IMG/VR virus record: IMGVR_UViG_3300036795_000108
Location: 1 to 64,000 of that record
Length of the DNA stretch: 64,000 nt
From: a virus
Reading direction: 5' to 3' (one strand)
Shown one piece after another: positions 2,393-31,515 of this stretch (position 1 is its first letter; every line of letters starts with the position of its first letter). The notes under the pieces were generated by a model that saw nothing but the letters and a program-made list of their open reading frames with translations, made no database searches and was not told the DNA's origin. Position numbers and translations under genes: made by a program.

Positions 2393-2712
2393 CCGCGCCG
2401 CCCGTCTAACTCGCGCTCGACGAGCTGCTCATGCCGGTCGTCGGTGCAGCCATGCACCAGGCAGTCAGCATCCGCCTGCAGCACGTCGCCGTGCGCTGAG
2501 AGCACGCACGAGCAGTCGCTGACCGTCGGCTCCTCGACCTCCCGTACGATCTCATGCGGACGTACCGCGATCGCGCGCTGCCCGCCGCCGGCGAGCGTCA
2601 GGCTGACCCAGCCGTCCTCCGCGACGAACAGCACCGTCCCCTGATACGCGACGCAGCCCATCGGCGGCGGGCGAGCCTCGCGGACACGGTCATCCCTTCT
2701 GAACTCAGTCAT
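2389..2712 (-). CDS. Hypothetical protein with C-terminal CxC...CxxH
   Basis: AAAGGA RBS before ATG 2712; lies downstream of promoter copy at 2759. Confidence 0.55.
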   Translation of the reverse strand: MTEFRRDDRVREARPPPMGCVAYQGTVLFVAEDGWVSLTLAGGGQRAIAVRPHEIVREVEEPTVSDCSCVLSAHGDVLQADADCLVHGCTDDRHEQLVERELDGRRG

Positions 2713-2758
2713 CAGTCGTCCTTTCGTGGGTTCCCCCGTTCGGGAGGGGCACATGCGT

Positions 2759-2768
2759 GAGTATAACG
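2759..2768 (-). promoter_or_regulatory. CGTTATACTC promoter motif (-10 TATACT), with CCCGAAC leader hairpin
   Basis: Exact 10-mer; TTGCCG-N18-TATACT. Confidence 0.8.
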
Positions 2769-3193
2769 GAGGATTCGGACGGACGGCAAGATCCCGTCTA
2801 AGGCTACCGCCGCCACCACCCGCGGGACGAGGCCCGCAAGCGCCGCGCAGAGGCCCAGCGTTCCCGCGAAAACCCAGTTCCAAGCGGAGCCGTCACCGAG
2901 CGCGTAGACGAGATTCCGGGCGAACAGCAGCACGAAGACGATCGTCTCAGCGAAAACCAAGCGCCGGTCCCGGCGCCGGTCCCGGCGAGCGCGGCGCAAC
3001 GCGAGATGGACCCCCCGGGCGATCGCCGCGTCATCATTCGCGAGCGCGCCCGGAGCGACCTCCTCCCGCGCCAGCAAGACCGCGACGACGCCCTCCGAGC
3101 GCAGGTCAAAGCTCCCGGCGCCCAAGTCATTAGCGACCGTCCCGTCATGCGCGACGCCATCCTGCCCGAAACGGATGTCGCGCCCAACCGGCA

Positions 3194-3498
3194 TCACGCA
3201 GACCGCGGAGTCAGCTCGCGCGCCTTGACCCACGCGGCAACCTCCATCCCGCACGCCGCCTTACCGAAGTAGTAGCGCGGGAACCATCCGCAAAATCGAC
3301 GGTCAGGACACGCGGATCGGTCTGGTCGACCTTGACGATGAACCGGCCCCGGTCGCAGTAGGGCGGCCGGATCTCGATCGACACGCGGCACTGCTCGAAC
3401 AGCAGGTCCACGTAGGTGCCGTGATCCTCCATGCTGACGTCCGGGAGCAGTGCCCGAACGCCGGTCCTGACGAACGCGAGTTCTGTCGCAGCGCTCAT
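3194..3498 (-). pseudogene. Frameshifted phage protein
   Basis: ...VDFADG continues in the -1 frame as FPRYYFGKAACGMEVAAWVKAR; one base missing near 3283. Confidence 0.6.
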
Positions 3499-4476
3499 CG
3501 ACCGCTGCGTCAGCTAGTCGCGGTCGTCGGACTCGCGAACTCCGAAAGCACCTGCGGCGTCGCCGTATCGAACCCGACGACGTCGAGCATCCCCGGATCC
3601 CGCGGATCGGCGATCGAGAACCCATTGCTGACCAGCACCCGTCAGTCTAGCTAGGTTCCCCGTCCCTGTCGACCGCGTCCGCACGGATCATGCCCGCCCC
3701 GCCGCACGAGTAGCCAGCACCATCCTCCCACGGCACCCACGGATGATTCTCACACACCAGTCCGCCGCCCTCGGCGATCCGCTCCTGGATGTCGTTGCTC
3801 GCGCCCGGGTACGCCTCGCAGATCACATCCGCCCGGTTGACGTTCCTGCCTATTTGCGTCATCACACGTCCCTCAGTCGTTGCGGGTTGTGCGGGAAGAA
3901 CGCCTTCATGATCTGGACCGGCGTGTAGGGCAGCTCGTCGCGGTGCTCAGCACACCAGTGCAGGACCTGCCGGTTCGTTGTTCCGTCAAGGGGGGCGCCG
4001 TGCTCCTCAAGGATCGCGATGAGCGTCGATCTCATTCGATGCGATGTCCGCCGCCTTGAGATGGATGTCAACGCGGCGCAGCCACTCGGCGAAGTCGGCC
4101 CACGGGATGTCCTCGTGATTGGACGTGGTCTGGGTCCTAAGCATCGGAGCCATCCGGGTTGCGGGAGCGAATGGCCTTCAAGTTGCTGATCACGGCCAGA
4201 TCCCCTCATAGGTATCAACGATGCGTTGGGCAATCTGCTTGACGGGCGTGCAGCGACCGTCAACCTCCCACGCCTCCAGCACCTGCGTAGCGCGGCGCAC
4301 GGGCTCGTCATCTGCGTCAGCGTCGAACCAATGAGCGACGACTTCACGCGTCGCTTGGTTGCCGCCCTTCAGTGGGTAGTACGTGCATGGCCAAGAACAG
4401 GAGAGCCATCCCGCAATGCCTGTAAGCAATTCGCTGCGGGTCCGAAGCGACGAGCTTTCGCTATTGCCTGAATGCG

Positions 4477-4779
4477 TCATCGCCCCTCCACCAGGGCGCG
4501 CATCGCTGCCCGTCCCTCGGGTGACCTCGCCCACTGGTCGCTCTCCTCTTTCGTCGCGTCGAACTCACCGGCGATGACGCGCTCGGCGAGCGCCATAGCT
4601 GTCGGGAGCATCAGGCTGCGCAGTTCATGGACGAGGAGATGCTCGGGCATCGCGTGCGGCGACTTGAAGTCATGGAACTCGTCTCAACGGGCGCGGACCG
4701 CGAGATCGCGGAAGCCCACCGCGTTCAACTCCTTCGCCAGTCGCTCGCTGCTCGGCTGGGGGCTATAGGAATGACTCAT
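4477..4779 (-). pseudogene. Phage protein with internal TGA
   Basis: 100-codon frame MSHSYSPQ...RAR*DEFHDFKSPHAMP...GEFDATKEESDQWARSPEG; in-frame TGA at 4684-4686; ends in ATGA overlap with next gene. Confidence 0.65.
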
Positions 4780-4951
4780 GAGCGCCTGCTCTCCGGCAGA
4801 CTGAGGCGCCATCCGGCCTCAAGAACCGATCGTGCGGCCGCGCAGAGACACTCGTTGCCGTTCGCATGGTGCTCGAGCGCGTACTCGATCGCGTCACGCG
4901 CCGTCTTCAGCCGATCGCTGTCACTTTGCTCGGGACGCGACTGCTCGGTCA

Positions 4952-5209
4952 TCAGGCTTCCTCTCCACGCTTGGGGGCTCCATCGGAGGTAGCTCCGACC
5001 GGAGGGATCGGCGGGTGGACGCGTCGAAGGCTCAGGATCTCCGGGTCAAGCAGGTTGCGGTCAGGCCACTTCCGGGCCACACCGAACGCACCCTCAGGAT
5101 CATGCTCGGCCTGCTGCTCGGCCACGTCGAACGTCCGCCTGTCGAGGATGGTCCCGGGCCACGCAGCCGAGTAGTCAACCCACGCCACGACCTCCCACCG
5201 CTCGGTCAT
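4952..5209 (-). CDS. Hypothetical phage protein
   Basis: ORF in a chain of ATGA-coupled minus-strand genes. Confidence 0.5.
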   Translation of the reverse strand: MTERWEVVAWVDYSAAWPGTILDRRTFDVAEQQAEHDPEGAFGVARKWPDRNLLDPEILSLRRVHPPIPPVGATSDGAPKRGEEA

Positions 5210-5566
5210 GGCAGCTTCCGGACTCCGGTGATCTTGAATCTCCCGGTCACACCGACGACCGGGAGCTCGTCAAGTTGCTGCTGGACGAGCTTCTGCGCAG
5301 CCTCGGGTGACTCCCCGTCCTCGACGTAGATCTCGGTCCCCCAATAACGATCGACGACCATGATCGTGACGCCGTAGTTGCGTTGCTCGGTCATGGGTTC
5401 ACGCTCTCCCACCACACACCAACGCGCTCGGCCCCGTCGAACACCTCGACGACCCGGAACGGTCGAGACAGAAGAAACACGACCGCCTCCCGCACCGAAC
5501 GCTGAACCGTCACGCCCCGCACATGCAAGCCGCCGGCATACCAGGCGTCATAGCCGAACCGGCGTC

Positions 5567-5914
5567 TCACGACCGCTCGAAGTGAGCGACGATCGCGTCC
5601 AAGTCCTCGCCCGACAGGACGTCGACATGCTCGGTGCCGTCCAGCCCCAACGGGGCGAGGATCTTCGCCGCGCGCAACGGCCCGACCTCCCGGACCGCCA
5701 TCAACAACTCCGCGACCTCCATCCGGCCGACGACACGCACCCCGCCGATCTCATCCGCGTCCGCGCCACGCGCCCCCTGGCGCAGCGCATCCCCCACCGC
5801 CATGTTCCCGGAGTGGATGCTCGCCTTGACCGCCGCGCGCGCCTCACGGGCCTGCAGGGCGTGCTCAAGGCCACGCTGCGTCTCCTCCTCGGTCAACTCA
5901 TGCCGGTCGGTCAT
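5567..5914 (-). CDS. Actinobacterial integration host factor (mIHF/sIHF)-like protein, acidic variant
   Basis: LTEEETQRGLEHALQAREARAAVK...VVGRMEVAELLMAVREVGPLRAAKIL parallels mIHF LTDEQRAAALEKAAAARRARAELK...VLGKMKVSALLEALPKVGKVKAQEIM (recalled); GAGGAGG RBS. Confidence 0.75.
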   Translation of the reverse strand: MTDRHELTEEETQRGLEHALQAREARAAVKASIHSGNMAVGDALRQGARGADADEIGGVRVVGRMEVAELLMAVREVGPLRAAKILAPLGLDGTEHVDVLSGEDLDAIVAHFERS

Positions 5915-5915
5915 G

Positions 5916-6344
5916 TCAGTCCTCCTCATCGTCCTGGGCCCTAGCGGGCCGGTTCGGGAATACCGGCGGCATCGCGACCGTCGGCTGCAACACCTCCGTC
6001 AACTGGTCCTGGGTGTTCGGCGCATCCTCCTCGTTCCGGGTCCTCGTCGCCGGCACGCTGGTGGCTTGGATCGAGCCCTCGTAGACAAACCGGGGGACCT
6101 GCCCATGCTCCCGATCCACCATCGCGTTGAAGTCGTCCAGCGGCCTCAGCCAATAGCCGATGTCAGAGAAGCTGAGCAAGGAACCCGGTGTGAGAGGCCG
6201 ATAGACGACGTGGATCTCGCCCTGCAACGTCGGGCCGGGACTCAGGTCGAGCTTGACCAGCGTGTGCTCAACGATGCCCAAGCCGAGAACCTCATACTCG
6301 CCGCCCTTGTAATGCCGGTAACGACCGGGGCCCTGATAGGCCAT
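5916..6344 (-). CDS. DUF1653 domain protein
   Basis: GRYRHYKGGEYEVLG...VVYRPL...WLRPLDDF...PRF. Confidence 0.85.
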   Translation of the reverse strand: MAYQGPGRYRHYKGGEYEVLGLGIVEHTLVKLDLSPGPTLQGEIHVVYRPLTPGSLLSFSDIGYWLRPLDDFNAMVDREHGQVPRFVYEGSIQATSVPATRTRNEEDAPNTQDQLTEVLQPTVAMPPVFPNRPARAQDDEED

Positions 6345-6372
6345 CTCTATCCTTCCGAATCCGGGTAGCGGC

Positions 6373-6382
6373 GAGTATAACG
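6373..6382 (-). promoter_or_regulatory. CGTTATACTC promoter motif
   Basis: Exact 10-mer, intergenic, upstream of the DUF1653 gene. Confidence 0.8.
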
Positions 6383-6466
6383 CGGCGCGAAACCCACGTC
6401 CCCGGAACGACCAAGACCCGCCGAAACGGGCCTTGGCGCGACCGGATCTCTCTCGCCCTTCGCAGT

Positions 6467-6706
6467 TTACAGGCCCTCGGGGCTGCGAGGAGTCGTCTTG
6501 CGGACAAGCTCGTCCAGGTTCGCCTGGGAGAATCTGCGCTGCCCACCGGGCGTCCGATACGACCGCAGGTAGCCCATGTCAGACCACCGCCGGACCGTCC
6601 CCAAAGACACGCCAAGCTGCTGGGCCGCCTGGCCGACGGTCAAGCCGAACGGCGGGTCGACGCGGTGAGTGGTCCGGCTGCCGCTCGCTCCGCTGGAAGG
6701 ACTCAA
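6467..6706 (-). CDS. MerR-type HTH (BldC/excisionase-like) DNA-binding protein
   Basis: LTVGQAAQQLGVSLGTVRRWSDMGYLRSYRTPGGQRRF. Confidence 0.85.
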   Translation of the reverse strand: MSPSSGASGSRTTHRVDPPFGLTVGQAAQQLGVSLGTVRRWSDMGYLRSYRTPGGQRRFSQANLDELVRKTTPRSPEGL

Positions 6707-6711
6707 GACGA

Positions 6712-7437
6712 TCAGAGTTCCTTCTCGCCGTGGACGGCCACCTTCGCCACGGCCTCGTTGATCTGCACCCGTAGGCGACCGAAGGGCGCGGCGGCGGACG
6801 CCAGCATGTCGGCGGCCTCCTTGAGATTCGCGACCGTGGCGGGATCACTAAGCGCTCGCCGCATGTCCCTGAGATGCCGATCGAGCAACTCCAAGTCGTG
6901 CCGATCGACCAATGTCAGCCCGATCGGCGGCCGAAGTCTCGCCGCCGCGTTCTCCACGCTGGCTCTATCGTCGAGGTTCGCTTGCTGATGGCGATCCATT
7001 CCACCCTCGCAGGTGCGACCGAGCCCAATCCACACCACGTCGCACGGACTCGCCTCGTTCGCTCCATGCTCGTCAGCGATGCACGAGTGGACGTGGACAT
7101 CCTGCGGCCCGTAAGGACCGAAGCACCACGACATCCCGTGCGGGGCATGTGTCATGCGCATCGAAGGGGGGTCCTGCGCATCAGAACCCTCCAACTGCGC
7201 TAGCTCTCGCTGGCCGCGCTCCGTCAAAACGGGCGTAGGCCCAATGCCCGTCCGTCCGGGCGGATATTCATCGATCAGTCCGCGCTTCACAAGCAGGACA
7301 CGGGTGCGGCTGTGAGGAGCGCGCTCACCGTCGATTCCCCAGCGGTACACGTCCTTACGAAGCTGCATCCGTCCCTCCCTCACAGCTCGAAGGATGCGGA
7401 TCACCTCATCGCGATCCAGATCAACCTTGGCTGGCAT
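6712..7437 (-). CDS. Hypothetical phage protein
   Basis: 241-aa ORF with AGGAGG RBS. Confidence 0.55.
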   Translation of the reverse strand: MPAKVDLDRDEVIRILRAVREGRMQLRKDVYRWGIDGERAPHSRTRVLLVKRGLIDEYPPGRTGIGPTPVLTERGQRELAQLEGSDAQDPPSMRMTHAPHGMSWCFGPYGPQDVHVHSCIADEHGANEASPCDVVWIGLGRTCEGGMDRHQQANLDDRASVENAAARLRPPIGLTLVDRHDLELLDRHLRDMRRALSDPATVANLKEAADMLASAAAPFGRLRVQINEAVAKVAVHGEKEL

Positions 7438-7821
7438 TCAGTGCCCTCCTTCGCAAGCGCCCGACCAGGGACCCGACATAGACCTTTCCCGCGATGTGGT
7501 CGAAGATGATCGCCTCGCCGGGTTTGGGCATCGGCAGCGGCTTCTCAGCCATCCCAGTCCCTCCTCGTCCGGATGCAAGTCGCAGTTCGGGCACTCCGAA
7601 CGATCCTCATACGCCGGATCGATCCGCGTCGCCTTATGAGCGCCGGGATCCCACATCGTTCCGCACCGCCGGCACGTCACGCAACGATCCTGGGCTTGGC
7701 GCGTCTAACTCACCCAGCGCTGCCTGGACAGCCTCGCGCAGCCGCTCAAGCTCGCACAGCGGACAGAACGCATCCTCCATGTAGCCGACCAGATGACACT
7801 CATGGATGCTGCACTCAGCAC

Positions 7822-8451
7822 TCACGCGACCCGCTCCAAAGCCAGCAGCTCGTCCATCCGCGCAACGGCCTCGTCCCGCGAGATGTCCTCGTCGAGGTAG
7901 GCGAACGCGTACCAGCCGGCGGCGTGCGGCTTGAACCAGTCAGAGTGCGCCCACGGCCATACGCGCTCCATCTGCACGCGTCCCTGGATCTGCAGGTGGC
8001 AGCGTTGGCAGAGCGCAGCGAGGTTCCACCAGCGCAGGTCGGCCTTGACGCCGTTGAGGTGGTGGACCGTCAGGATGCGGTACTCGGCCTCCACCTCAAG
8101 CCACCGGCTGCCCGCGTGAAGCCACTGGCCGACCTCTGAAGGCGGTGTCGTCTCGGTCCACCCGCTGCGCTCATCGAGGCCGTTCCGGCACCGGCACGGC
8201 CCTTCGTGGAGGCAGTCGAGATCGCACGGCGACCAGCGACCCAATCCGGCGCGGACGCGGAACGGGTGGTGGCACCGCTCACAGCGATGGCCCGCCAACG
8301 CGCGGACGACATCCTTCACACCGCCCGGCAGAACCATGTCCGCCAGGTCCAGCAGCGGGTGGTCGATAGGTAGGTGATGCCACGCGAACGGGTAGCCGTC
8401 GGCGCCGCACTCGTTCGGCTCGTAAATCCGCAGAGCCTCCAGACCCGTCAT
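7822..8451 (-). CDS. HNH endonuclease-like protein
   Basis: HRCERC...LTVHHLNGVKAD...NLAALCQRCHL. Confidence 0.8.
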   Translation of the reverse strand: MTGLEALRIYEPNECGADGYPFAWHHLPIDHPLLDLADMVLPGGVKDVVRALAGHRCERCHHPFRVRAGLGRWSPCDLDCLHEGPCRCRNGLDERSGWTETTPPSEVGQWLHAGSRWLEVEAEYRILTVHHLNGVKADLRWWNLAALCQRCHLQIQGRVQMERVWPWAHSDWFKPHAAGWYAFAYLDEDISRDEAVARMDELLALERVA

Positions 8452-8858
8452 CCCAACTCCCCGGTAAAGCCCGGATGCTTCGCCGCCATATGCCGACGCA
8501 ACTGCACGAACGACCGCTTACAGCACGGGCACACCGCAGCGGCCGCACGCTTACGCGCTTTCGTTGCGGTCCCCTTGTACGCCCGCGCTGACGCCTGGGC
8601 CTGGTCACGCTCAGCCGCCAGCCGCGCGGCCCGCGAGCGCTCCGCGTCGAGCCGTCGCTTCAGCCGGTCGGACTCGCCCTCGCCGGCGATGACGTGGGTG
8701 TGTCCCAGCGGGCAGTAGATGCTGGTGTGCTTCCACCCGTTGGCGTGGTCTCGTTGCTGCTTAGCTCGAAGCTCGCTCGGGACCGCGTGGTACACCCCGC
8801 ACCAGCAGACGACCGTAACGAGCTGGCCGCTGTAGTTGATGGTCTGACTCGACATCAA
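8448..8858 (-). CDS. Zinc-binding coiled-coil phage protein
   Basis: CWCG, CPLGH and C-terminal CPCCKRSFVQLRRHMAAKH (C2H2-like). Confidence 0.65.
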   Translation of the reverse strand: MMSSQTINYSGQLVTVVCWCGVYHAVPSELRAKQQRDHANGWKHTSIYCPLGHTHVIAGEGESDRLKRRLDAERSRAARLAAERDQAQASARAYKGTATKARKRAAAAVCPCCKRSFVQLRRHMAAKHPGFTGELG

Positions 8859-9072
8859 ATCTCCTCGTCCGCGTTGACGATGTTGAAGGCAAGCGCTGGG
8901 ACCGCCTCAGACGACGCCCGGAACGACACGTCATCCTGCTCAACTAAGCCGAGCCAGATCAACGCCCGAAACGTCTCCGGCGGCCGCAGGTCATTCGCTG
9001 ACACCCAGCCATCGCGGCGGACAAGTTCCTCCAGCCAAGCGATCCCCTCAGCGCTCAACCGCATCTCCGAAG

Positions 9073-9402
9073 TCATCCGATCCCCAATTCTCGCTCAAGC
9101 TCGGCGACCCGACGCTCCCTATCGCGAAGCTCCCGCTCCCGGCGCTCGCGCTTCTGCGCCCTGGACTCGCCGGCAATCACACGAGCAACGCTATCCGCTG
9201 GCCTCTGCCAGAACGACATTCGGGCGATGACGAAGAACGGCCCTAGCCAGACGAGCGTCAGCGAGATCAGCAACAGCGCCGCGAGGTCGCCGGTCGTGAT
9301 CTCCTCCTGCTCATATTCAATCTCCGCGCGGCAGACCGCCCTCCATGACGCGAGAAAGACGAGTACGCCCGCACCGAGCCCAAGCCACGCGACCCAGCTC
9401 AT
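9073..9402 (-). CDS. Two-helix membrane protein with coiled-coil tail
   Basis: Two hydrophobic stretches; start chosen at MSWVAWLG downstream of the promoter copy. Confidence 0.55.
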   Translation of the reverse strand: MSWVAWLGLGAGVLVFLASWRAVCRAEIEYEQEEITTGDLAALLLISLTLVWLGPFFVIARMSFWQRPADSVARVIAGESRAQKRERRERELRDRERRVAELERELGIG

Positions 9403-9427
9403 CCAGATCTCCGTCGACTCATCGCCC

Positions 9428-9437
9428 GAGTATAACG
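9428..9437 (-). promoter_or_regulatory. CGTTATACTC promoter motif
   Basis: Exact 10-mer, intergenic. Confidence 0.8.
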
Positions 9438-9463
9438 CAGCGTCAACCCGCCGGGGGTTTCCC

Positions 9464-10245: not shown

Positions 10246-10683
10246 TCACGCGAGCGCTCCGGTCAGGATGTCGAGTTGCGCGAGCACCCCGTCATCCGGC
10301 GTCCAGAGTCCGAGTTTGCCCTTGCGAGCGATCGGCTCGTCAAGCGTTACGGGGTTCGCGAGCACCCACTGGTACTCCTCCGGGCAACTCCACGGGCTCG
10401 GATAGTTGCGGACGCAGTCAATGATGTCAACGATCGCAATGATCGCGCTCTGCGGCGTGTCGAGCAGGCTGTCCGAGTGGATGTCGAGGATCTCGGCTGC
10501 CTTCCGCGCGCCGGGCTTGTCGTAGGCGGCGCCGGCGTGGATCAGAAGAGGGCCGCGATAGCTGGTCTTCCAAGAGCGGTTCTCGACGTCCTTCAGTCCC
10601 GTGGCGATTAGGCTTGCCCACGGTTGCTTGATGGTCAGGGTCTTCACGGTCTGCCTTTCGTAGATGGGCGTGGTTCGGGTCAC
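10246..10683 (-). CDS. ASCH domain protein (ASC-1-like)
   Basis: TLTIKQPWASLIATGLKDVENRSWKTSYRGPLLIHAG...KGKLGLW. Confidence 0.9.
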   Translation of the reverse strand: MTRTTPIYERQTVKTLTIKQPWASLIATGLKDVENRSWKTSYRGPLLIHAGAAYDKPGARKAAEILDIHSDSLLDTPQSAIIAIVDIIDCVRNYPSPWSCPEEYQWVLANPVTLDEPIARKGKLGLWTPDDGVLAQLDILTGALA

Positions 10684-10694
10684 GCCGTACGCCT

Positions 10695-10723
10695 GAGTAT
10701 AACGGAGCGTCGGTGCCCGTCAA
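10695..10723 (-). promoter_or_regulatory. SigA-like promoter containing CGTTATACTC
   Basis: TTGACG-N16-TATACT. Confidence 0.85.
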
Positions 10724-15065: not shown

Positions 15066-16091
15066 TCAGCCAAGCACCGTCGCGAGCGTCTCGACCGTCG
15101 AGGCGTCGAGCTTCTCAAAGCCCCCCTGCACCGCCTTGAGCTGGTTGCGCTCGACGCGCTCCGAACCCCGGACGCTGAACACATGGTGGTCGGCCGTGTT
15201 GACCGCCTGCACGACACCCCACGCCGTGTTCCTCCACGGAGCGACCCGGTTGTCGTTGTCCCAGAGGTTCTGGAGCGCGGCCTGCTTATTGGTCGCTCTC
15301 CCGATCGCAGCCTTCCGCGTCTTATCCGCCGGGACCGGCGCCAACTCGGCGAGGAACTCCGCCCACTGCGCGTCAGTGACGGTCGTGTTCGTCAACTCCT
15401 CGACCTCGGCCGTGAAGTCCTCGGCGATCGTATAGACGATCGCCAGCGCCTCACGCGCGTCGGCGAGCTTCGCCTGCGAATACTTCGTGTGACGGACCTT
15501 GAACACCTGGCCCTGCTCGCCGAGGCCCGCGGCCATCGTGTTGTCGCACACCACGTTCTGGACGCAGCGCTTATAGGTCGTGGACAGCGACCCGTCAAAC
15601 GCGGTCGCCGCCAGCAGGTAGGGACGAAACTCCACGCCGCTCGGCGTCGTGATGCTGTCCGGCACCTCGATCTGCACCCACGCGATCCGGCCGTTGCGCA
15701 GCAGGCCCGCGGAGCCGATCCCGAGATCGTCGTCAAGCAGCGACGCGACCTCCTTGAGCAGCCACTCGTCGTACTGGTGGATCTGCCAGCCATCCTTCGG
15801 GACGCCGAGGATGAACCCCGTGTCGTCGCGCATGATGGCCTTGAACCCGCCGGACGTCTCGGGCGTGGACTGGATGACACCGTCCGGAGTGATCGCCGTT
15901 GCGACGACCGCGCCCTCGATGGCGTGCCAGTCGAACAGGCGACGCTCGACGTCCTCGACGGGAATGAAGCCCGGGTAGTGGTTCGGTTCGGCGCCCTGCT
16001 CGCTGGCCTTGTAGTGCCAAGCGTTGCCTCGCCGGTCGGTCAGGCCGATCAGGGTGTTTTGATTCAGCCATTCGTACGTCTCGGAACTCAT
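15066..16091 (-). CDS. DUF932 / phage-plasmid-like protein
   Basis: RGNAWH...SAGLLRNGR...TAFDGS...NVVCDNT...VRHT...TAWGVVQAVNT. Confidence 0.85.
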   Translation of the reverse strand: MSSETYEWLNQNTLIGLTDRRGNAWHYKASEQGAEPNHYPGFIPVEDVERRLFDWHAIEGAVVATAITPDGVIQSTPETSGGFKAIMRDDTGFILGVPKDGWQIHQYDEWLLKEVASLLDDDLGIGSAGLLRNGRIAWVQIEVPDSITTPSGVEFRPYLLAATAFDGSLSTTYKRCVQNVVCDNTMAAGLGEQGQVFKVRHTKYSQAKLADAREALAIVYTIAEDFTAEVEELTNTTVTDAQWAEFLAELAPVPADKTRKAAIGRATNKQAALQNLWDNDNRVAPWRNTAWGVVQAVNTADHHVFSVRGSERVERNQLKAVQGGFEKLDASTVETLATVLG

Positions 16092-16140
16092 GTGATGCCC
16101 TTTCGTAGATTCGAGCGGTTCGGGATCGCTCGCTACGCAA

Positions 16141-16170
16141 GAGTATAACGGAGCGCGGCTGTACCGTCTA
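16141..16170 (-). promoter_or_regulatory. Promoter containing CGTTATACTC, with CCCGAAC leader hairpin downstream
   Basis: TAGACG-N17-TATACT. Confidence 0.85.
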
Positions 16171-17539: not shown

Positions 17540-17547
17540 CCGGGTCC

Positions 17548-18051: not shown

Positions 18052-18056
18052 CGCCG

Positions 18057-18066: not shown

Positions 18067-19134
18067 CTACGCAACCGCTCCCGCACGCAGCGGCTGGACA
18101 TCACGCTCCAAGTCATACAGATCCGCGACCGACCACACATCCTCGCCGGCGACCGTGACGACCACATCGCAGTTCAGGATCATCGCGTCGACCAACTCCA
18201 CCGAGACGCGGTCCTGGTCGCCGAACAGCACGCTCTGCAACCGCCGCGGGTTCAAACCCAACTCCGCCGCCAAACGGCCGGCGCTCAACTCGCTGCGGCG
18301 CCCATCACCCGACATCGTCCACAGGGCGCGCTGGATCGAGAACGCGAACAGCCACAGCCGACACGGCCCGCAGCCCACCACGTCCGGAGCGCCGGCACTA
18401 GCCCGCGCGACCCGCTGAGCCTTACGCTCGATCGTGAAGAACCCCGGGTCCTCAGCGATCTTCGCGGCACGCCACGCCGCGACCCTCGCCCGGTTACGCG
18501 CCCGAAACTCCTCCCCATCGGCACGCCGCGCATAATGCCGGCGCCCCGCCGCGCGCATCCGATCGCGCCACACCGCCAAGCGCTCAGGATCCTGACGGAT
18601 CCGCCGGTAGGTCGCCTGGCTCTGCGCCCGCACCCGATCGCGATGATCCTCGCGCCACCGCGCCAGCCGCCGCGACTCGCACACCCGGCAGCGCGGCACC
18701 CACGTCCGGGCGCGCCCATCCGACCGGCGGCCCATGCTCGTGAACTGCGACACCAACGGATCGTCATCAACCACCTTCTCCACTCCGCACCCCGCGCAGC
18801 GCTTCACCCGGACCGGACGGCCGTCGCGCATCACCATCTTGACCGTCACATACGGCGGCGGCACCGTCGGAGGGGCCGACAGCACCAGTTGCGTCGACAC
18901 CCCCAACGCCCGGGCTATCCGCCGGACCGCGCGAGCATCCAAGCCGCGCGTCCCATACTCGAAATCCCGCATGTACGTCCGGCACACCCCCGCCTGCTTC
19001 GCCATCTGAACCTGAGTGATTCCCTTCTCGCTGCGCATCTGCCGCAGCGTCTGAGACGCGCCGCCGACGCTCACAGCAACCCCTCCCGCCATTCCATCCA
19101 CCGGCAGCGCATCCGACGCAGCCTCCATAACCAC
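18067..19134 (-). CDS. XRE-family HTH plus zinc-finger DNA-binding protein
   Basis: LRQMRSEKGITQVQMAKQAGVCRTYMRDFEYG...IARALGVS; CAGC...CRVC. Confidence 0.65.
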   Translation of the reverse strand: MVMEAASDALPVDGMAGGVAVSVGGASQTLRQMRSEKGITQVQMAKQAGVCRTYMRDFEYGTRGLDARAVRRIARALGVSTQLVLSAPPTVPPPYVTVKMVMRDGRPVRVKRCAGCGVEKVVDDDPLVSQFTSMGRRSDGRARTWVPRCRVCESRRLARWREDHRDRVRAQSQATYRRIRQDPERLAVWRDRMRAAGRRHYARRADGEEFRARNRARVAAWRAAKIAEDPGFFTIERKAQRVARASAGAPDVVGCGPCRLWLFAFSIQRALWTMSGDGRRSELSAGRLAAELGLNPRRLQSVLFGDQDRVSVELVDAMILNCDVVVTVAGEDVWSVADLYDLERDVQPLRAGAVA

Positions 19135-22671: not shown

Positions 22672-22694
22672 CCCGTCCTCCTACTGGTTGGGGG

Positions 22695-23192: not shown

Positions 23193-23207
23193 CGGGAGTA
23201 CGCGAGC

Positions 23208-24797: not shown

Positions 24798-25687
24798 TAG
24801 CGCCTGAACTCGAACGCGCGTTGCTTGACGACCAGCGGCTTGTCCTTCGGTCCCTTGACGGAATCGGGGATCCATATAGGTAAATGTCGATTCTGACTCG
24901 GATACCACTGATTCCGCCAATGGGCCCGGGAGATCCACCTATGAGTCCAATTGACGTTTCGCCTGTCATCCGTGTCCGCGTAGATCTTGCGTCGCAAAAC
25001 CATGACGATGACGGTCTTGACCTGTCGGGCTTTGGCACGCCGTCGAACCGGCCGGCTGACATCTCCCTTGTTCAAAACGAACAGGCGTTGCTGGGCGAGA
25101 AACCAGAAGGAGACAAGCAGCTTCGCGATCGGGAACTGGTAGCTGGCCACACTCCCGTCGCCGGGAAACGCGACCTCTGATACAAGCGGCGCGAGCGTCC
25201 CGAATGCGTCCGAGTAGCCGATCACAACGGCGAGGTTTGAGTCGGGCCTCTTGACCGTCACCCACGCGAACGCGACCAGTGAAGCATCCTCCCAGAAGTT
25301 AGGGATCGACTCGGCTAGCCAGACAAACCCGTTGGGGATCAGCAGATCGCTTTCTCGTAGCTCGAAAGGGTCCATAGGATCGCGGAAGCCCGCTGCGATA
25401 ATCGCCGAAACCTCCGCGGAGGCGTAAATGGCTTCGCAGTCGGACAGGCCCATCTTGGTCGCCGTATAGAGGGGAGGCATGTCCATCTCTGCAAACAGAT
25501 CCGCCTTATCGGGCAGCAGCGTTGGGCCAATATGGGTCATGGCGGCCGAGATCGTCTTCGCCCAGTCATCTCCGCGTTGACTTCTGACGAACGCGATGGC
25601 GTCCGTCAGCTTGTCCATCGCGATCTCGTAGCCGCGATCCGTCGGCTGTCCGTAACCGTGGACTCCTGGTATACGCTTTTCCTGCAT
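24797..25687 (-). CDS. Hypothetical moron-like protein
   Basis: AT-richer codons; own promoter and leader; C-terminal HRWISRAHWRNQWYPS...IWI...KGP motif. Confidence 0.65.
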   Translation of the reverse strand: MQEKRIPGVHGYGQPTDRGYEIAMDKLTDAIAFVRSQRGDDWAKTISAAMTHIGPTLLPDKADLFAEMDMPPLYTATKMGLSDCEAIYASAEVSAIIAAGFRDPMDPFELRESDLLIPNGFVWLAESIPNFWEDASLVAFAWVTVKRPDSNLAVVIGYSDAFGTLAPLVSEVAFPGDGSVASYQFPIAKLLVSFWFLAQQRLFVLNKGDVSRPVRRRAKARQVKTVIVMVLRRKIYADTDDRRNVNWTHRWISRAHWRNQWYPSQNRHLPIWIPDSVKGPKDKPLVVKQRAFEFRR

Positions 25688-25708
25688 CGGACCTCGATTC
25701 CGGTGTCG

Positions 25709-25737
25709 GCCCCGGAGCGTTCCTGCGCTGCCGGGGC
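25709..25737. promoter_or_regulatory. Structured leader hairpin, CAGGAA loop, copy 1
   Basis: Minus strand GCCCCGG-C-AGCG-CAGGAA-CGCT-CCGGGGC. Confidence 0.7.
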
Positions 25738-25782
25738 ATTCTTTACGGGCGTCTAATCCTACAGCCGATCCCGGCTCGCGGG

Positions 25783-26157
25783 TCACGCAGTCTCTTTCGC
25801 CCAGCGGTTCTGCTCGTCCTTGACCAGCCCCGTCCGGGGCATCACGCGGTACAGGTAGTTCGCCGTGATGCCGAGCTTCTGAGCGATCTCCGGGATCGTC
25901 AACGGCCCGTTCTGCTCGACCGCCCCTACGGCCTGCTGAAGCCGCGAGCCGCCCTTCTGAGACCCCGGAGGGCGCCCGCGACGACGACGAGTCGGGCGCG
26001 ACTTGACGACGGTGTCCTCCAACTTGGCTGTCGAGGCGGGCGGCTGGCCATTCTCGCCGAGCGCTCCGAGCGCGGCCCGCAGCTTCTCGGCCTGGACCTC
26101 ATGAAAGACAAGGCCCTCCCGGATCTTCTCCGCCACTGCTTCTACGTGCTGCATCAC
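25783..26157 (-). CDS. Coiled-coil + AT-hook + winged-HTH DNA-binding protein
   Basis: RRRRGRPPGS, LTIPEIAQKLGITANYLYRVMP. Confidence 0.75.
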   Translation of the reverse strand: MMQHVEAVAEKIREGLVFHEVQAEKLRAALGALGENGQPPASTAKLEDTVVKSRPTRRRRGRPPGSQKGGSRLQQAVGAVEQNGPLTIPEIAQKLGITANYLYRVMPRTGLVKDEQNRWAKETA

Positions 26158-26431
26158 TTCCTCCTCTGGTTGACTCTAGGTAATCGGGGCGTCTACCGTC
26201 CGCGGAGTCAAGGCATCGAGCGCTTCTTGTAACTCGCGACGATGAAACCCCGGGACTACCTGCGCATGTTCGGCGAGAAGATGCTCAACCGCGTGGATAA
26301 GTTCGCTCATGGGCGCAACCGACGCGACCTCGACATCCTCGCCGAGCGCCAATGACGGACCTCGTTTAGCGACGATGTCGAGTGGCATCAGCGACCGGGC
26401 GTCGGAGCCAGTGAGCACCCAATGTCGTCGG

Positions 26432-27553
26432 TCAGGCACCGCGTTCCTCCTCCGGGAGCTGGGAGCGCAGGTAGGCGATCTCCTCATCCATCTCCGCTAC
26501 CTGCTCAAGCGTGACGCCTAACGCGGTCTGCTTGTCCTCCAACTCCGCGATGCGAGCGCGCGCGACCTCCGGAGCGATCTCCACCCCGCCATCCCCGCCA
26601 TCCCCGCCATCCTCCGGTACCACCACCGCGTCGGTGACCAACTCCTCGCTCGCATCCTCAGCCCGGCGGTTTAGCTCCTCGGCCTGCCGAAGCCACACCT
26701 CGATCGCCGCGCCATCCTGGCCACCCAACGCCATCTGCGCCGCCGCTGGCGACAACGTGCCCGGACGCACCTCCTGAGCCCGATCGTAGATCGCCCGGAA
26801 GCGCTCACGGAACGCCTCGGGCAGATCATTCGTGATGCTGACGACCATCTCCTCGACCGTCTCCGCGCTCGGCGCCGGCCGCGACGGCTCATCGCTCCAC
26901 GTCGGGATCTCGCCCTCGGTGTAGACCGCGATCCCGCCAGTCGCCTTCGGGCAGTACCACTTCACCCCATTCGACATCGCCCGGTTGAACTTCATGTTGC
27001 GGGGATAGGTGACGTGATTCGGGTCCGCCCCCTTGCTCGTCTTATCGAGCAGGTGAGCACGCCCGGCGTCCTCGTCATCGAAGCGCGACTCTCCCGCGTA
27101 CTCCTCGCCCGGGCGCTGACGCGAGGGCTGGCAGTGATCGCAATGGCGCTCCTGCACTCCGGCGTTCGGGCAACCCTTGGCGTGACGCAGATAGCCGACC
27201 TCGTCGGGATCGGCGAACTCGGTGCGCTCGAAGAAGTGGATCTCGCACGCCGCGTTCGTATGCTCGACGATCGCGTAGCGGTAGTCGGGCAGCTCCTGTA
27301 CGAACGTCGCCAGCAGGTTGGCACCCACAACCGGGTTGCCCTTGACCATGTAAATCCCGGTCATTGACTGCTGCGCCGTCAGCCCCAGGCTGCGACCCAT
27401 CTGGATCTTCGTTACCGCCTGGTAGAAGTTGCGGACGTCCGGGAACATCCCCGACTCCGCGAAGCCCTTAGACAGGCGGATGTCGAAGTCGAGTTGCTTG
27501 TGGGGATTGAGGGTCGCTACCTCGCTGCCCGGCTTCTGTTCAGTCTCCGGCAT
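26432..27553 (-). CDS. RecT-like ssDNA annealing protein
   Basis: FAESGMFPD...QAVTKIQMGRSLGLTAQQSMTGIYMVKG...YPRNMKFNRAMS; lies near an exonuclease. Confidence 0.7.
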   Translation of the reverse strand: MPETEQKPGSEVATLNPHKQLDFDIRLSKGFAESGMFPDVRNFYQAVTKIQMGRSLGLTAQQSMTGIYMVKGNPVVGANLLATFVQELPDYRYAIVEHTNAACEIHFFERTEFADPDEVGYLRHAKGCPNAGVQERHCDHCQPSRQRPGEEYAGESRFDDEDAGRAHLLDKTSKGADPNHVTYPRNMKFNRAMSNGVKWYCPKATGGIAVYTEGEIPTWSDEPSRPAPSAETVEEMVVSITNDLPEAFRERFRAIYDRAQEVRPGTLSPAAAQMALGGQDGAAIEVWLRQAEELNRRAEDASEELVTDAVVVPEDGGDGGDGGVEIAPEVARARIAELEDKQTALGVTLEQVAEMDEEIAYLRSQLPEEERGA

Positions 27554-27816
27554 CCTGCTCCTCTCCGTTGTACGGCTGCTCATGTCGATGTCTCATCCCT
27601 AACGCGAACTCGGCGTCGGCGCGGACGGAGAACGGACCGTCGATCAAACGCTCGTCCGGACCGACCGCGAAGAACACCCCGTCAGCCTCCTCCACATACG
27701 GCTGCGGGAGCGCCTCATAGTCCGGATGCTCGCGCAGATAGCGCGACGGAAACAGCATCCCTTCGACCATCGGCATGACGCCACCTCTTTCATAGGAACC
27801 TCTGCTCGGGAGCACA

Positions 27817-27826
27817 GAGTATAACG
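27817..27826 (-). promoter_or_regulatory. CGTTATACTC promoter motif with variant CCCGAGC leader
   Basis: Exact 10-mer heading the recombination operon. Confidence 0.8.
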
Positions 27827-28004
27827 CAGCGCCAAGAGGTGTGAAGATCGAGACGCCGGACCGCGATCTGTTTTCTCGCTCCGAAGATGGCCCAGAACGA
27901 GCCCGAACAAGAACGGCTGGGTGGCCGCTCCGCCTACGAAAGGACATCGCGGTCCGGCAGTCTCAATCGCCGGGGAGGATACACGCTCCCGTACGATCCC
28001 CCGC

Positions 28005-28769
28005 ATGGACAGCGATCCGCGACTCGGATTCGTGATCGTCGACTGGAAGACCCCACGGCTCGCCGCGGCCTGCTCAGAGTCGATCCGGACGCTGCGCCCC
28101 CGCTCCGAGATCCTCACCGTCAACGCCGCCGGCGCGAGCCTCGGATACGCCCAAGCTCTCAACGCCGGGATCGGCGCGTTGTGCTCCGAGGCGGACGTCA
28201 TCGTCTGCCTGAACGCCGACACGCGGATGCTCGAAGCAGACGACGCGATCCTCGACCTGTTCGACCGCGACCCGGACCTCGCGATCATCGGCCCGCGGCA
28301 GATCAACGCCCGGCGCCAGATCGTGCATGGCGGGATCGTTCAATGGCCCGACGGCACCCCCTGGGATCTGGACCTGAGGCACCGCTGCTGGCATCAGCTC
28401 GTCGACCAGCCGCACGTCGACGCGCTTACCCGCATGACGTTCGAGGTCCCGACCGTCGCCGGCAGCGTCATCTACTGCCGGCGCCGTACCCTGAGCGCGC
28501 TCGGCGGCTGGCCGGAGTTCAGCCGCTACTACTACGAAGACACCGGCCTCTGCCTGCTGGCGCGCCACCACCAGCGCCGGGTCCTCTACACCGGCAGCGT
28601 CACCTGGGAGCACCTGCACGAGGGATCGCCGTTGCGTCGCAGCGTGCGGACGCACTTCATCACCAAGGCGACCGGCCAGTTCATCGCATGGAGCGCCGAG
28701 CAGGGCATCCCGCTCAACATCGAACCGGACGCGCAGAGAGTCCTCGCCCGGGATGCGGGAGTGCTGTGA
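28005..28769 (+). CDS. Glycosyltransferase family 2
   Basis: FVIVDWKT...LGYAQALNAG...CLNADT...VAGSVI...YYEDTGLC; leaderless TACGAT-N7-ATG. Confidence 0.9.
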   Translation: MDSDPRLGFVIVDWKTPRLAAACSESIRTLRPRSEILTVNAAGASLGYAQALNAGIGALCSEADVIVCLNADTRMLEADDAILDLFDRDPDLAIIGPRQINARRQIVHGGIVQWPDGTPWDLDLRHRCWHQLVDQPHVDALTRMTFEVPTVAGSVIYCRRRTLSALGGWPEFSRYYYEDTGLCLLARHHQRRVLYTGSVTWEHLHEGSPLRRSVRTHFITKATGQFIAWSAEQGIPLNIEPDAQRVLARDAGVL

Positions 28770-29545
28770 GCGTCGGCGCGGAGGGCCTGAACCTCGTCGC
28801 GTCCGTCATCGCGCGAGACGAGCTGGCGAGATATCAACCCGCGCTCGTCCACCACCTGAGCGGCTGGGTTGACGAGGTCAGGGTCCTCGATGACTGCAGC
28901 ACCGACGGGACCTACCAGGCCCTCGAAGCGCTCGGGCCTAAGGTCCACGTCCAGCACATCCTCGGCGCGAGCGCGTGGGACATGTTCGGCGAAGGAGCCG
29001 CCCGGCAGCAGGCCCTCGAATGGGCGATGCAAGCCCGCCCGACACACGTCCTCCACGTCGACGCCGACGAGGTCATCCCGGACGGCAAGCTGCTGCGCCG
29101 CGCGATCCTGCGCAACCCCGACTGTGACGTGTTCACCCTGACGATGCGGGAGATCTGGAAGCGCGACGGGATCCCGTGGCAGGAACGCGTCGACGGGCAG
29201 TGGGGGCCGCGGGAATGCCCGATCCTATGGCGGGTGCCCGACTCTGCGCGGCGGACCGGGGAGCTACCCGATGGCTACAACATCCGGCCGGTGAAGCTCG
29301 CCAGCGGCCGGGAACCAGAGATCGTCGCGACGCTCGGCGCGTTCGGGGATGCGGTCCGCACCGGCGTGGACATTCTGCACTTGGGTTGGAGTGACCCGGC
29401 GGAGCGCCGGCCCCGGTATGACCGGTACATGCAGATCGACGGGGGTGAGCATCACGCGTCCGAGCATCTGCTGTCCATCATCGAGCCGCCCGAGCTTGAG
29501 CCCTACCCGGCGCATCACGGCGTGCTGGGGTCTTCTACCTCATAG
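28766..29545 (+). CDS. Glycosyltransferase family 2-like
   Basis: VIARDE...VLDDCSTDGT...LHVDADE...ILHLGW; GTGA overlap with upstream GT. Confidence 0.85.
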   Translation: MSVGAEGLNLVASVIARDELARYQPALVHHLSGWVDEVRVLDDCSTDGTYQALEALGPKVHVQHILGASAWDMFGEGAARQQALEWAMQARPTHVLHVDADEVIPDGKLLRRAILRNPDCDVFTLTMREIWKRDGIPWQERVDGQWGPRECPILWRVPDSARRTGELPDGYNIRPVKLASGREPEIVATLGAFGDAVRTGVDILHLGWSDPAERRPRYDRYMQIDGGEHHASEHLLSIIEPPELEPYPAHHGVLGSSTS

Positions 29546-29811
29546 GCCGCGCCGCGTGCGACATGCTCGCCGCCGGCTGGAAGTTGGGACTCTCCGACCT
29601 TGCGGTACGCCACCGTGTCGGCGACATCCTCGTCCGCCTGCCTCGCATCCCACATCGCGAGAGCCTCCCCGTCGACCCCTTGGAGGACCAGCAGGTGATC
29701 TGGCAAGGGCCACGCGCGTTCCTCGCTTGGGATGGAGATCGTCTTCCCCGCGAACGGGTCGTCTTGGAAGCGGAGCAGAAACCCGCGCGGATCCAAAGCA
29801 GTCATCGTCAT
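29515..29811 (-). CDS. Hypothetical protein
   Basis: AAGGA RBS, follows the upstream stop by 2 nt. Confidence 0.55.
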   Translation of the reverse strand: MTMTALDPRGFLLRFQDDPFAGKTISIPSEERAWPLPDHLLVLQGVDGEALAMWDARQADEDVADTVAYRKVGESQLPAGGEHVARGAAYEVEDPSTP

Positions 29812-29813
29812 CG

Positions 29814-30629
29814 TTATTCCTTTTCTGTTTGTTGCTTCACACCGTTGACGTAGTCAAGGGCATGCTGGCCACTGCCGAAGTAGAAATCGCGCCAGCCATC
29901 CTCACTCCATCGCAGGCCCCCGATGCCCGTGCGGAGCGCGTCGACTGCCAAGTCCCACCGCTCCTGATCGCTGAGGTCGTACCAGACATCCCAGTCCCGC
30001 GCGTCGGGGTCGTCGCCCTCAACGCGATCGGCAGGATCGCGGACGCCGATCAGCGGCGGTATCCACGTCTTGCCCTCGAACGCGACGTAGGCGTTCGGGA
30101 ACGACTCGCAGACGCTGTAGCTGGTGACGACGATCTCGCCGGCGCGGAGCACGCGACACGCCTCGCGCCAGCCGGACGGGTAGTCGCCGTGGCCCTCGCG
30201 GAACACGCTGGTCTTGAACCCATCCTCGATCAGGCCGGCGATGAACTCGCCGTCCTCGGGCTCGACGTAGCCGTGGATCTCGCACTGGCCGTGGACGCGG
30301 GCGGCGAGCGCCATAGGCGCCGAGCCGACGCGCAGACAGGTATTGAGAACTGTCGCGAAGATCTCCTCACCATCGGCAAAGTGCTGCGGCCCGCAGCTCT
30401 GGAGAAACATCTCGAACTCGTGGTCAATCTGGTTTCCCCAGCCGGAGTGCTGCTGGTGAGCAGTGTCGTGGATGTAGTGGTCTGACGGGACCAGCGCCAC
30501 CTTCTCCTCGCTGCGGAGTATCCCGAAGATCCCGGCCGCGAAGTGGTTGCAGAGCTGCCCCATGTAGGCGCGTTCAGTCCCGTAGACCTCGACAGTCTCG
30601 GTGGGGGTGTGGAAGTAGATCCGGCTCAT
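29814..30629 (-). CDS. Hypothetical acidic phage protein
   Basis: 271-aa ORF with typical codon usage. Confidence 0.65.
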   Translation of the reverse strand: MSRIYFHTPTETVEVYGTERAYMGQLCNHFAAGIFGILRSEEKVALVPSDHYIHDTAHQQHSGWGNQIDHEFEMFLQSCGPQHFADGEEIFATVLNTCLRVGSAPMALAARVHGQCEIHGYVEPEDGEFIAGLIEDGFKTSVFREGHGDYPSGWREACRVLRAGEIVVTSYSVCESFPNAYVAFEGKTWIPPLIGVRDPADRVEGDDPDARDWDVWYDLSDQERWDLAVDALRTGIGGLRWSEDGWRDFYFGSGQHALDYVNGVKQQTEKE

Positions 30630-31243
30630 GAATTAGATGACGGCGGCGGCGACTTCTTCTCGTAGATCGGCACCCACGTCAACCCCGGTCCCGCAGGTGG
30701 CTGGCCGAACTTCGCAGGCCACCACTTACCGGTCCCAACAAGCCGCCACCCCTTCAGATACCTGGGAGTGGTCATTGGCAACCGTGCGACTCGGCAAGTC
30801 GCGCTCGGGCGAACTCGCGGTTACGCTCACCCTCCAAGGCGTCGCGAGCAGGCTCCTCCGACTCGGCGGCCGCCAACACCTGCTCCGCGAGCATCAACGC
30901 CGCCTCGCGCTGATTGACCGGGGATCTGCTATTCAGCACCCGCTCGGCCAGCAGCGACCAGACCGACGGGATCAGGACACGCCCATCGCGTGTCACCTCC
31001 GGACGAAACGACTTCATAGTCCCATCTCCATCGGGTCGAGTTGGCAGGCGGTCGACGCGCAGTCGAACACCCCATGCGTCCGGCAGGGCGGGGTGCCTTG
31101 GTCATCGTAGGAGCACACCGAGCCGTCCGGGCAGATGATCGTGATGGAGCCGTCCGGGCTTGGGATGATCCGTAGGGACGCGCCTGTATAGGCCAGCGAT
31201 GTCTCCTCGATCCGGGCGTCCTGCTCATGGGTCGTAAGGCTCA

Positions 31244-31459
31244 TCAGGAATCCTTCGTCTGCGTTGGATACGCGCAGAAGTCGCCGGTCGGATCGACCCG
31301 CACATAGATCCCCGCGGCCGTGGACTCTCCGCAGTGGCAACACCGTCCGGTCGGGGGGGCGAGGATGCCTATTGGCTCGCGTCCGGGTTCGTTGATGAAC
31401 TCGGGCCAGCACCTAGTGCAGAGAGGCTGCGTCCAGCTAAAGCGTTGCTCAGGGGCCAT
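31244..31459 (-). CDS. Small zinc-binding protein
   Basis: CTRCW...CCHCG; first gene after the promoter copy at 31506. Confidence 0.55.
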   Translation of the reverse strand: MAPEQRFSWTQPLCTRCWPEFINEPGREPIGILAPPTGRCCHCGESTAAGIYVRVDPTGDFCAYPTQTKDS

Positions 31460-31505
31460 CAAATCCTCTTTTCGTAGGGGCGCCTGTTCGGGAAGCGCTC
31501 CGCCT

Positions 31506-31515
31506 AAGTATAACG
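31506..31515 (-). promoter_or_regulatory. CGTTATACTT promoter motif (1 mismatch) with CCCGAAC leader hairpin
   Basis: Divergent intergenic region. Confidence 0.8.

Follow-up and report, generated by a model that had tools for sequence, protein, structure and literature searches.

What is the function of a small hairpin that recurs behind one kind of promoter, in front of unrelated genes, in the genome of a single phage? The hairpin in question has the loop CCCGAAC and lies on the minus strand of an 87,221-bp IMG/VR virus record with direct terminal repeats (IMGVR_UViG_3300036795_000108), which has a G+C content of about 66% and nearly all of its genes on the minus strand. The window analyzed here is bases 1-64000 of this record, and coordinates refer to it unless the genome is named. 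A first-pass annotation, made from the sequence by itself, had described the hairpin between 2712 and 31515 as an RNA element of no described family that heads long early operons, and had proposed that it acts in antitermination, by analogy with the boxB hairpin of lambda nut, or in translational control. Our analysis suggests an RNA leader element of an undescribed family that acts more probably on translation or message stability than in antitermination. The reading that we favor, and to which we give an even chance, is that of a phage-specific RNA operator in the 5' leader, attached to one class of host-type promoters.

The element was found in six units, all on the minus strand, with the same order of parts: a -35-like hexamer, CGTTATACT, a stem and loop, a linker of 2-3 nucleotides (nt), CYAC, GAAAGG and a start codon. 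In the four canonical copies, the TATACT hexamer is followed after 9-11 nt by an inverted repeat of 5-6 bp around CCCGAAC, so that a fixed loop, (U/A)CCCGAAC, sits in stems of free sequence. The box CYACGAAA(G/A)G comes 2-3 nt after the hairpin, and the start codon stands 6-8 nt beyond the box (6-10 nt across all six units). Within the box, GAAAGG is an atypical Shine-Dalgarno sequence and CYAC pairs back to the first transcribed bases.

Three of the copies read as first described; we name each by the highest coordinate of its hexamer. The copy at 2765 (2720-2768; hexamer 2760-2765) has the arms CCCCT and GGGGG (2745-2749 and 2733-2737) around CCCGAAC (2738-2744), the box CCACGAAAGG at 2720-2729 and, at 2712, the ATG of a 107-residue gene without a known family. 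At 16147 (16099-16150; hexamer 16142-16147), the arms CGAGCG and CGCTCG (16127-16132 and 16112-16117) enclose AT plus CCCGAAC (16118-16126, heptamer 16118-16124); there is an outer helix GUAG/CUAC, and the box CTACGAAAGG (16099-16108) precedes the ATG of a DUF932 gene at 16091. The copy at 31512 (31468-31515; hexamer 31507-31512) has the arms GCGCTT and AGGCGC (31493-31498 and 31480-31485), its loop at 31486-31492 and the box CTACGAAAAG at 31468-31477, followed at 31459 by the ATG for a 71-residue Cys-containing protein. A fourth canonical copy had been overlooked. It belongs to the promoter at 10701 (10654-10704; hexamer 10696-10701), where GGCGTG and CACGCC (10681-10686 and 10667-10672) flank A plus CCCGAAC (10673-10680, heptamer 10673-10679) and CTACGAAAGG (10654-10663) precedes the GTG of an ASCH-domain gene at 10647. 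The variant TGCT-CCCG-AGCA, already listed in the first-pass annotation, was confirmed at 27823 (27787-27826; hexamer 27818-27823): CCCGAGC (27804-27810) lies within a mini-hairpin at 27803-27814, with CTATGAAAG at 27787-27795 and an ATG at 27776. A sixth copy, also diverged and new to the count, lies beyond the window, behind the promoter at genome position 78000, and reads CCCGGAC followed by CTACGGAAAGG.

The heptamer CCCGAAC by itself is common, with 42 copies on both strands of the genome; a flanking stem of at least 5 bp, however, was found at each of the four copies close to promoters and at just 2 of the remaining 38. The stems differ yet pair around the kept loop, as had been claimed: all six pairs of the inner helix are formed in every one of the four copies (100% paired), and five of the six are altered on both sides. 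The covariation score of the inner helix was reached by none of 500 shuffles, and sliding the helix partners lowered pairing from 92% to 28-49%. The outer helix shows one compensatory change, GUA/UAC in three copies versus GUG/CAC at 2765, which is why the Y of the CYAC box varies. A covariance model built from the four canonical copies and run on the genome gave these copies 44.9 (2765), 46.6 (10701), 49.7 (16147) and 45.1 bits (31512); the next genome match was the 27823 variant with 15.4 bits (rank 5), and the copy at genome position 78000 scored 11 bits (rank 10). The box was likewise enriched. CYAYGAAAR occurs six times in the window versus 1.1 expected, five of the six lie in elements, and the five on the minus strand each stand 6-10 nt before a start codon. 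The box differs from the ordinary ribosome-binding site of this phage: GGAGG occurs 249 times on the coding strand of the whole genome versus 47 times on the other, and the TATACT leaders that have no element carry ribosome-binding sites of the GGAGG type, whereas GAAAGG occurs only nine times on the coding strand of the genome, four of them within elements. Stem enrichment, covariation and model scores thus support the earlier proposal that the hairpin is an RNA-level element heading transcription units. That it belongs to no known family also held: Rfam 15 gave no match in the window at gathering scores, and at E ≤5 (positions 1-34000) it gave five matches, none of which overlapped the element. 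An origin by chance or from coding sequence was rejected, since the frame through the element varies (8 or 9 nt from loop to box) and every copy lies between a consensus promoter and a start codon preceded by a Shine-Dalgarno sequence.

TATACT occurs 13 times in the genome, exclusively on the minus strand (0 on the plus strand), and the window alone holds 11 exact copies of CGTTATACT (13 matches versus 2.2 expected when up to one mismatch is allowed), more than the four TATACT promoters first counted. The element is present at 6 of the 13, four times in canonical and twice in diverged form. A -35-like hexamer scoring at least 4/6, for which the background frequency is about 10%, was found at five of the six element-bearing promoters versus one of the seven others, and RCGCTS stands just upstream in the same proportions (5/6 versus 1/7, from a reading of the sequences by eye).

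Leaderless translation requires a 5'-terminal start codon. At three TATACT promoters (17536, 18063 and 9434), an ATG follows the hexamer by exactly 6 nt and opens open reading frames (ORFs) of 60 residues, 167 residues and 7 codons, respectively. Because these leaderless ATGs follow the same hexamer at 6 nt, we set the start site at about position 7 after it, and transcription would begin about 7 nt past the hexamer. The inner stems begin at positions 9-11; therefore, the hairpin is predicted to lie at the extreme 5' end of the RNA, 1-3 nt from the start. The outer stem TAGG/CCTA that had been drawn at 31512 falls upstream of this predicted start and would not be part of the RNA; the 27823 mini-hairpin may likewise have most of its 5' arm upstream of the start, hence untranscribed. 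The predicted 5' end of the 2765 leader falls at or adjoining an AUG 42 nt upstream of the annotated start and in the same frame (2712-2754, minus strand), and a leaderless, longer isoform of that protein (121 versus 107 residues), read through the hairpin, is possible. The leaderless mini-ORF of promoter 9434 (9402-9437, minus strand) encodes MSRRRSG and ends in an ATGA junction (9402), where its stop codon and the next ATG overlap; it may be translationally coupled to the gene that begins there, which encodes a membrane-like protein of 109 residues.

The conservation along the six units has a distinct pattern: the promoter is identical, the discriminator loose, the stems free but paired, the loop invariant, the linker free, the box invariant and the spacer free. 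This is the pattern that selection on a hairpin with a sequence-read loop gives and, as the box contains the ribosome-binding site, it favors a post-transcriptional operator. The alternative of translational control raised in the first-pass annotation therefore fits the anatomy better than antitermination. The 5' end of an RNA is the classic position of a stabilizer against 5'-end-dependent RNases. In the mechanism that we propose, the 5'-terminal hairpin would protect the message against such RNases and present its loop, and a trans-acting partner would read loop and box. That such a partner reads the loop is probable, since stems of entirely different sequence carry one invariant loop; and, with the ribosome-binding site inside the box, binding of the partner would set the translation, and thereby the stability, of a small regulon made up of the DUF932, ASCH and replication/recombination-region units. 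The genes headed by the element are unrelated to each other, suggesting that it is a regulatory tag of the phage and not of one gene family. In the unit at 27823, for example, a 78-residue orphan comes first in a block of 9.7 kb that includes PD-(D/E)XK nuclease and primase-helicase genes; the first product of the unit at genome position 78000 is a 225-residue protein, encoded downstream of the terminase gene. The sixth copy lies directly downstream of this large terminase gene (genome 78022-80538, minus strand), which encodes a Terminase_6C domain and a LAGLIDADG-type insert, probably an intein.

Several points weigh against this operator. The canonical copies number just four and come from a single genome. 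The covariation comes from n=4 paralogues of this single genome in an alignment fitted to the structure model, and no homologue that could be added was found in the collections searched; a three-part search pattern for the element, for example, had no match in viral contigs. The start site is a prediction from the leaderless genes. The folding energies of single leaders are unexceptional (z = +0.73, -0.95, -1.41, +0.73 and -0.65), and for the ribosome-binding site the accessibility predicted in longer contexts did not differ between element leaders (0.43-0.66) and non-element leaders (0.32-0.56). About 60 ORFs were scanned against Pfam and PHROGs, which gave DNA-metabolism, methylase, helix-turn-helix, JAB, ASCH and IHF-like proteins but no recognized RNA-binding regulator; the ASCH protein is the sole lead, a weak one. 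Moreover, the conservation of the box can in part be explained without a partner, since it includes the ribosome-binding site and pairs to first transcribed bases that are themselves constrained; the loop would then be the sole unexplained invariant. Two further ideas were discarded. An insulator effect on the ribosome-binding site found no support in its predicted accessibility, which is no different from that in other leaders, and a pseudoknot between the loop and the box or the downstream sequence would have just 2-3 possible pairs on inspection.

The only candidate partner that we found is an RNA from an inverted copy of the two motifs, predicted from the sequence of a folded intergenic element at 27855-27958, between the minus-strand promoter 27823 and a plus-strand gene for a glycosyltransferase with a GT2 domain (Pfam). 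On the plus strand, this element carries CCCGAAC at 27902-27908 and, 25 nt downstream of it, CCTACGAAAGG at 27933-27943, the sole plus-strand box match of the window. From base frequencies, we estimate at about 1e-3 the probability that an exact 10-mer box would fall near any of the 42 heptamers. The motif pair is enclosed by inverted-repeat arms of 21 nt (27855-27875 and 27938-27958, 86%). With the 16147 leader, the locus has the 3' stem arm and the post-box spacer in common; compared with the leaders, it is longer by about 16 nt behind the loop motif and lacks a counterpart of their 5' arm. The alignment with the 16147 leader suggests that the locus is a duplicate, inverted and rearranged, whose loop and box were conserved more than its remainder: all 17 letters of the two motifs (7 of the loop, 10 of the box) are retained, with the other positions diverged, which argues for selection on both motifs themselves.

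A minus-strand RNA from 27968 to 27850 is predicted to fold with -63.8 kcal/mol (z -5.3), an energy as low as that of none of 200 shuffles, and the plus-strand fold of the same element has -58.4 kcal/mol (z -4.5). The fold of the candidate RNA is among the lowest 0.4% or so of 8,712 genome windows and is not the most extreme. The candidate RNA carries the complements of both the box and the leader loop; in its fold, the complement of the box core lies in a hairpin loop (unpaired probability 0.7-1.0), and four letters of the loop complement lie in an internal loop (0.8-0.9). We ranked the duplex energy of the candidate RNA with each leader against 2,172 same-strand windows and counted the windows that were at least as good. 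The counts were 0 for 16147, 28 for 31512, 52 for 27823, 98 for 2765, 110 for 10701 and 836 for the copy at genome position 78000, versus 198-1,563 for four non-element leaders; the top rank of 16147 is partly due to the descent of the candidate RNA from that leader. Each strand has a weak promoter candidate, the minus strand TATCCT (27981-27976) and the plus strand TGTGAAGAT (27840-27848). Wobble pairing was considered as support and dropped: of six variant departures, three keep pairing by G-U and three do not, which is the chance level. A terminator-like hairpin upstream of promoter 31512 (31579-31585, read on the minus strand) also carries the loop complement, in a string of 10 letters that is shared with the candidate RNA, maybe by chance.

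These data would allow a trans-acting antisense switch with two contact sites on the phage's own early messages, a proposal that is tentative and, in our judgment, rather improbable. The RNA from about 27968 to 27850 would be made from the TATCCT -10 sequence, form a kissing contact with the CCCGAAC loop and then zip onto the box at the ribosome-binding site, so that six transcription units would be silenced, or handed to RNases, together; loop and box would be invariant because all copies must match one RNA. Antisense control through two sites is known from the c4 RNA of P1/P7 and from OxyS-fhlA. As in those systems, the minus-strand RNA of one locus would be complementary to both the leader loop and the ribosome-binding-site box; unlike them, the locus at 27855-27958 is only predicted to be transcribed, and it can as well be read as an inverted duplicate of the 16147 leader. 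Possible alternatives for it are a plus-strand decoy RNA, an operator at the DNA level and a fossil copy.

The rival of the leader operator that survives best does without a partner. In this account, a strong promoter, a 5'-terminal stabilizer hairpin and a ribosome-binding site form a passive cassette that spread by recombination, with the loop kept for the sake of its own folding. Such cassettes, the promoter-early stem-loops (PeSLs), occur in T4-type phages (PMC2839356), where the published account shows composite units of promoter, stem-loop and Shine-Dalgarno sequence spreading within phage genomes. The likeness is considerable: PeSLs too are described as repeated units in which a stem-loop and a Shine-Dalgarno sequence accompany a host sigma-70-type promoter before diverse, mostly uncharacterized early genes (PMC2839356). 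In our phage the whole unit is shared, including the upstream RCGCTS, the hairpin would sit at the extreme 5' end, and the stem letters common to the inverted copy and the 16147 cassette point to duplication. However, neutral divergence that replaced every stem position would not have spared seven loop letters in four copies, and gene conversion cannot skip the stems. We recognized no known stable loop motif in the heptamer, and loop and box were retained in the inverted copy, which does not form the hairpin. The PeSL stem-loops, as described, also differ in that they lie within or upstream of the promoter, are terminators and have no fixed loop (PMC2839356), whereas the hairpin studied here lies downstream of the predicted start, 9-11 nt past the -10 hexamer, with no U-tract and an invariant loop. 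We therefore regard a passive cassette as an unlikely explanation.

Processive antitermination, the analogy first drawn, would have a boxB-type hairpin recruit a phage protein to RNA polymerase for read-through of terminators. The lambda nut site consists of boxA and boxB and is read by the N protein, and its boxB has a GNRA-like pentaloop. Like it, the present element is a small RNA hairpin close to the promoter, and since its loop is fixed and its stem varies, it too carries the information in the loop rather than in the stem. Strong hairpins without U-tracts precede several promoters (for example, -29.8 kcal/mol before 6379 and -25.7 kcal/mol before 33334); they are possible terminators of the upstream units and make read-through control conceivable. 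Terminator-like sites were not enriched in a consensus scan (4 versus 6.7 expected and 10 versus 8.0), and no terminator-rich operon comparable to that of lambda was seen. There is no conserved linear element 5' of the hairpin that could serve as a boxA-like partner, with 1-3 nt between the predicted start and the stem; the sole conserved linear box is the 3' strand of the outer helix plus the Shine-Dalgarno sequence. With 7-9 nt the loop is longer than a pentaloop, and in every copy the element is tied to the ribosome-binding site. The units are also mostly short and not the long operons first supposed: measured to the next promoter or to convergent genes, four span 1.2-4.1 kb and one 9.7 kb, the unit at 2765 reaches about 2.7 kb to the end of the record, and the most degenerate copy heads the longest, 9.7-kb unit.

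A protein similar to N was not found either. Pfam and PHROGs gave no antiterminator family in the ORFs scanned, and an Arg ranking of 74 listed minus-strand ORFs gave one top credible candidate, at 32946-33293, the other small ORFs being without a family. The product of this Arg-rich ORF resembles the S13-like H2TH/mIHF group of DNA-binding proteins (language-model features; structure TM 0.83) rather than an N-like peptide. The phage encodes two such mIHF/S13-like H2TH proteins on the minus strand. The one at 32946-33293, strongly basic with 17% Arg and a pI of 11.6, is encoded by the first gene behind promoter 33334; the one at 5567-5929 matches Pfam H2TH_5 with E 4.3e-5, short of the family cut-off. 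Taking these points together, we hold antitermination to be very unlikely.

We doubt as strongly that CCCGAAC and CTACGAAAGG are a DNA-level operator, bound by a phage regulator as a roadblock with the hairpin as a separate matter: an XRE-type helix-turn-helix protein (18067-19134) and the two mIHF-like proteins are candidate binders, and recognition of double-stranded DNA is the simplest account of motifs that recur inverted in a divergent promoter region at a spacing of 25 nt versus 8-9 nt, but the motifs are asymmetric, dissimilar and not helically phased, CCCGAAC is common elsewhere, and an operator in DNA gives no reason for the compensatory upkeep of the flanking inverted repeats.

We return to the leader operator and its distribution. 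This is an uncultured soil phage; the only sequencing run that contains it is a soil metagenome. The nearest named homologues of its DUF932 protein come from Actinomadura, Streptomyces, Nonomuraea and Parafrankia, and a Rv2525c-like domain is encoded in the lysin region; together, these suggest that the host is likely an actinobacterium. No close relative was found among GenBank phages or in IMG/VR. The best capsid match in the listed GenBank rows is 29.5% identical, and none of the 134 records with a match reaches 60%. In IMG/VR the capsid has no close relative, the DUF932 relatives reach at most 61% and the primase relatives at most 43% identity, and the leader element was absent from the DUF932 and primase relatives examined there. 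The top DUF932 homologue in a large protein collection has 73% identity and is encoded on a 13.9-kb Logan contig.

Pattern searches for the element itself gave no convincing second genome that bears copies, in the viral and genome collections or among the metagenome matches listed. In viral contigs, a loop-plus-box pattern matched 15 stretches, none with a stem of at least 5 bp, and a long-spacing pattern matched 43, none with blastn similarity to the genome; on five of their records, the covariance model gave at most 19.7 bits. The three-part pattern in genome contigs matched 11 stretches in scattered non-actinobacterial metagenome-assembled genomes, again with a stem of at least 5 bp in none. 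The loop-plus-box pattern had at least 119 matching stretches in metagenome contigs, and 10 of the 119 listed have such stems. A single one of the matches listed, on the 3.3-kb contig Ga0180436_10045486 (1277-1318, plus strand), has the right context: a 7-bp hairpin around CCCGAAC, then ACGAAAGG, and 9 nt later the ATG of a 65-residue Cys-rich ORF. It scores 24.8 bits, versus 45-50 for the real copies, and the contig has no protein in common with the phage; coincidence and a distant analogue are both possible. A full-text literature search for the CCCGAAC heptamer in phages returned nothing relevant by title or abstract. The box CTACGAAAGG sits 7-10 nt before the start codon in several unrelated high-GC phages of IMG/VR and may be a recurrent variant of the ribosome-binding site in such phages.

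Among known systems, translational operators at the Shine-Dalgarno sequence, such as the T4 gene 43 operator, the RegA and RegB targets and the coat-protein operators of RNA phages, come close in design. They too are short hairpins with a sequence-specific loop, 5' of or overlapping the ribosome-binding site, through which one factor can act on several messages. The difference is that the phage element would also form the extreme 5' end of the RNA, and that no cognate protein was found for it among the ORFs scanned. A second likeness is to the start-associated sequences and their extended form (SAS/ESAS) of Cluster K mycobacteriophages (PMC3203893) and Cluster EF Microbacterium phages (PMC7302621), the function of which is given there as unknown, with translation control suspected. 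As described in these papers, they are conserved asymmetric motifs at the ribosome-binding sites of a subset of unrelated actinophage genes, with an inverted repeat just upstream, and are cluster-specific, as is our element to its phage. In ESAS, however, conserved 17-bp arms flank a variable spacer, whereas here the arms are free and the loop is invariant. The sequences are also unrelated, the published SAS consensi being other 13-mers, and the present element is fused to one promoter class.

Repeated leader motifs such as SAS/ESAS have been known in actinophages since 2011, without a mechanism in the published accounts (PMC3203893, PMC7302621). Here, an invariant loop on free stems occurs together with a candidate complementary RNA in the same genome, in copies so far confined to one genome. 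The parts of the element are cleanly separated, with a stem that serves for pairing only, a 7-nt loop that counts as sequence and an atypical box tied to one promoter class. A promoter-leader-reporter construct with or without the 120-nt element would therefore be a compact synthetic system for testing how a phage may co-regulate unrelated genes after transcription.

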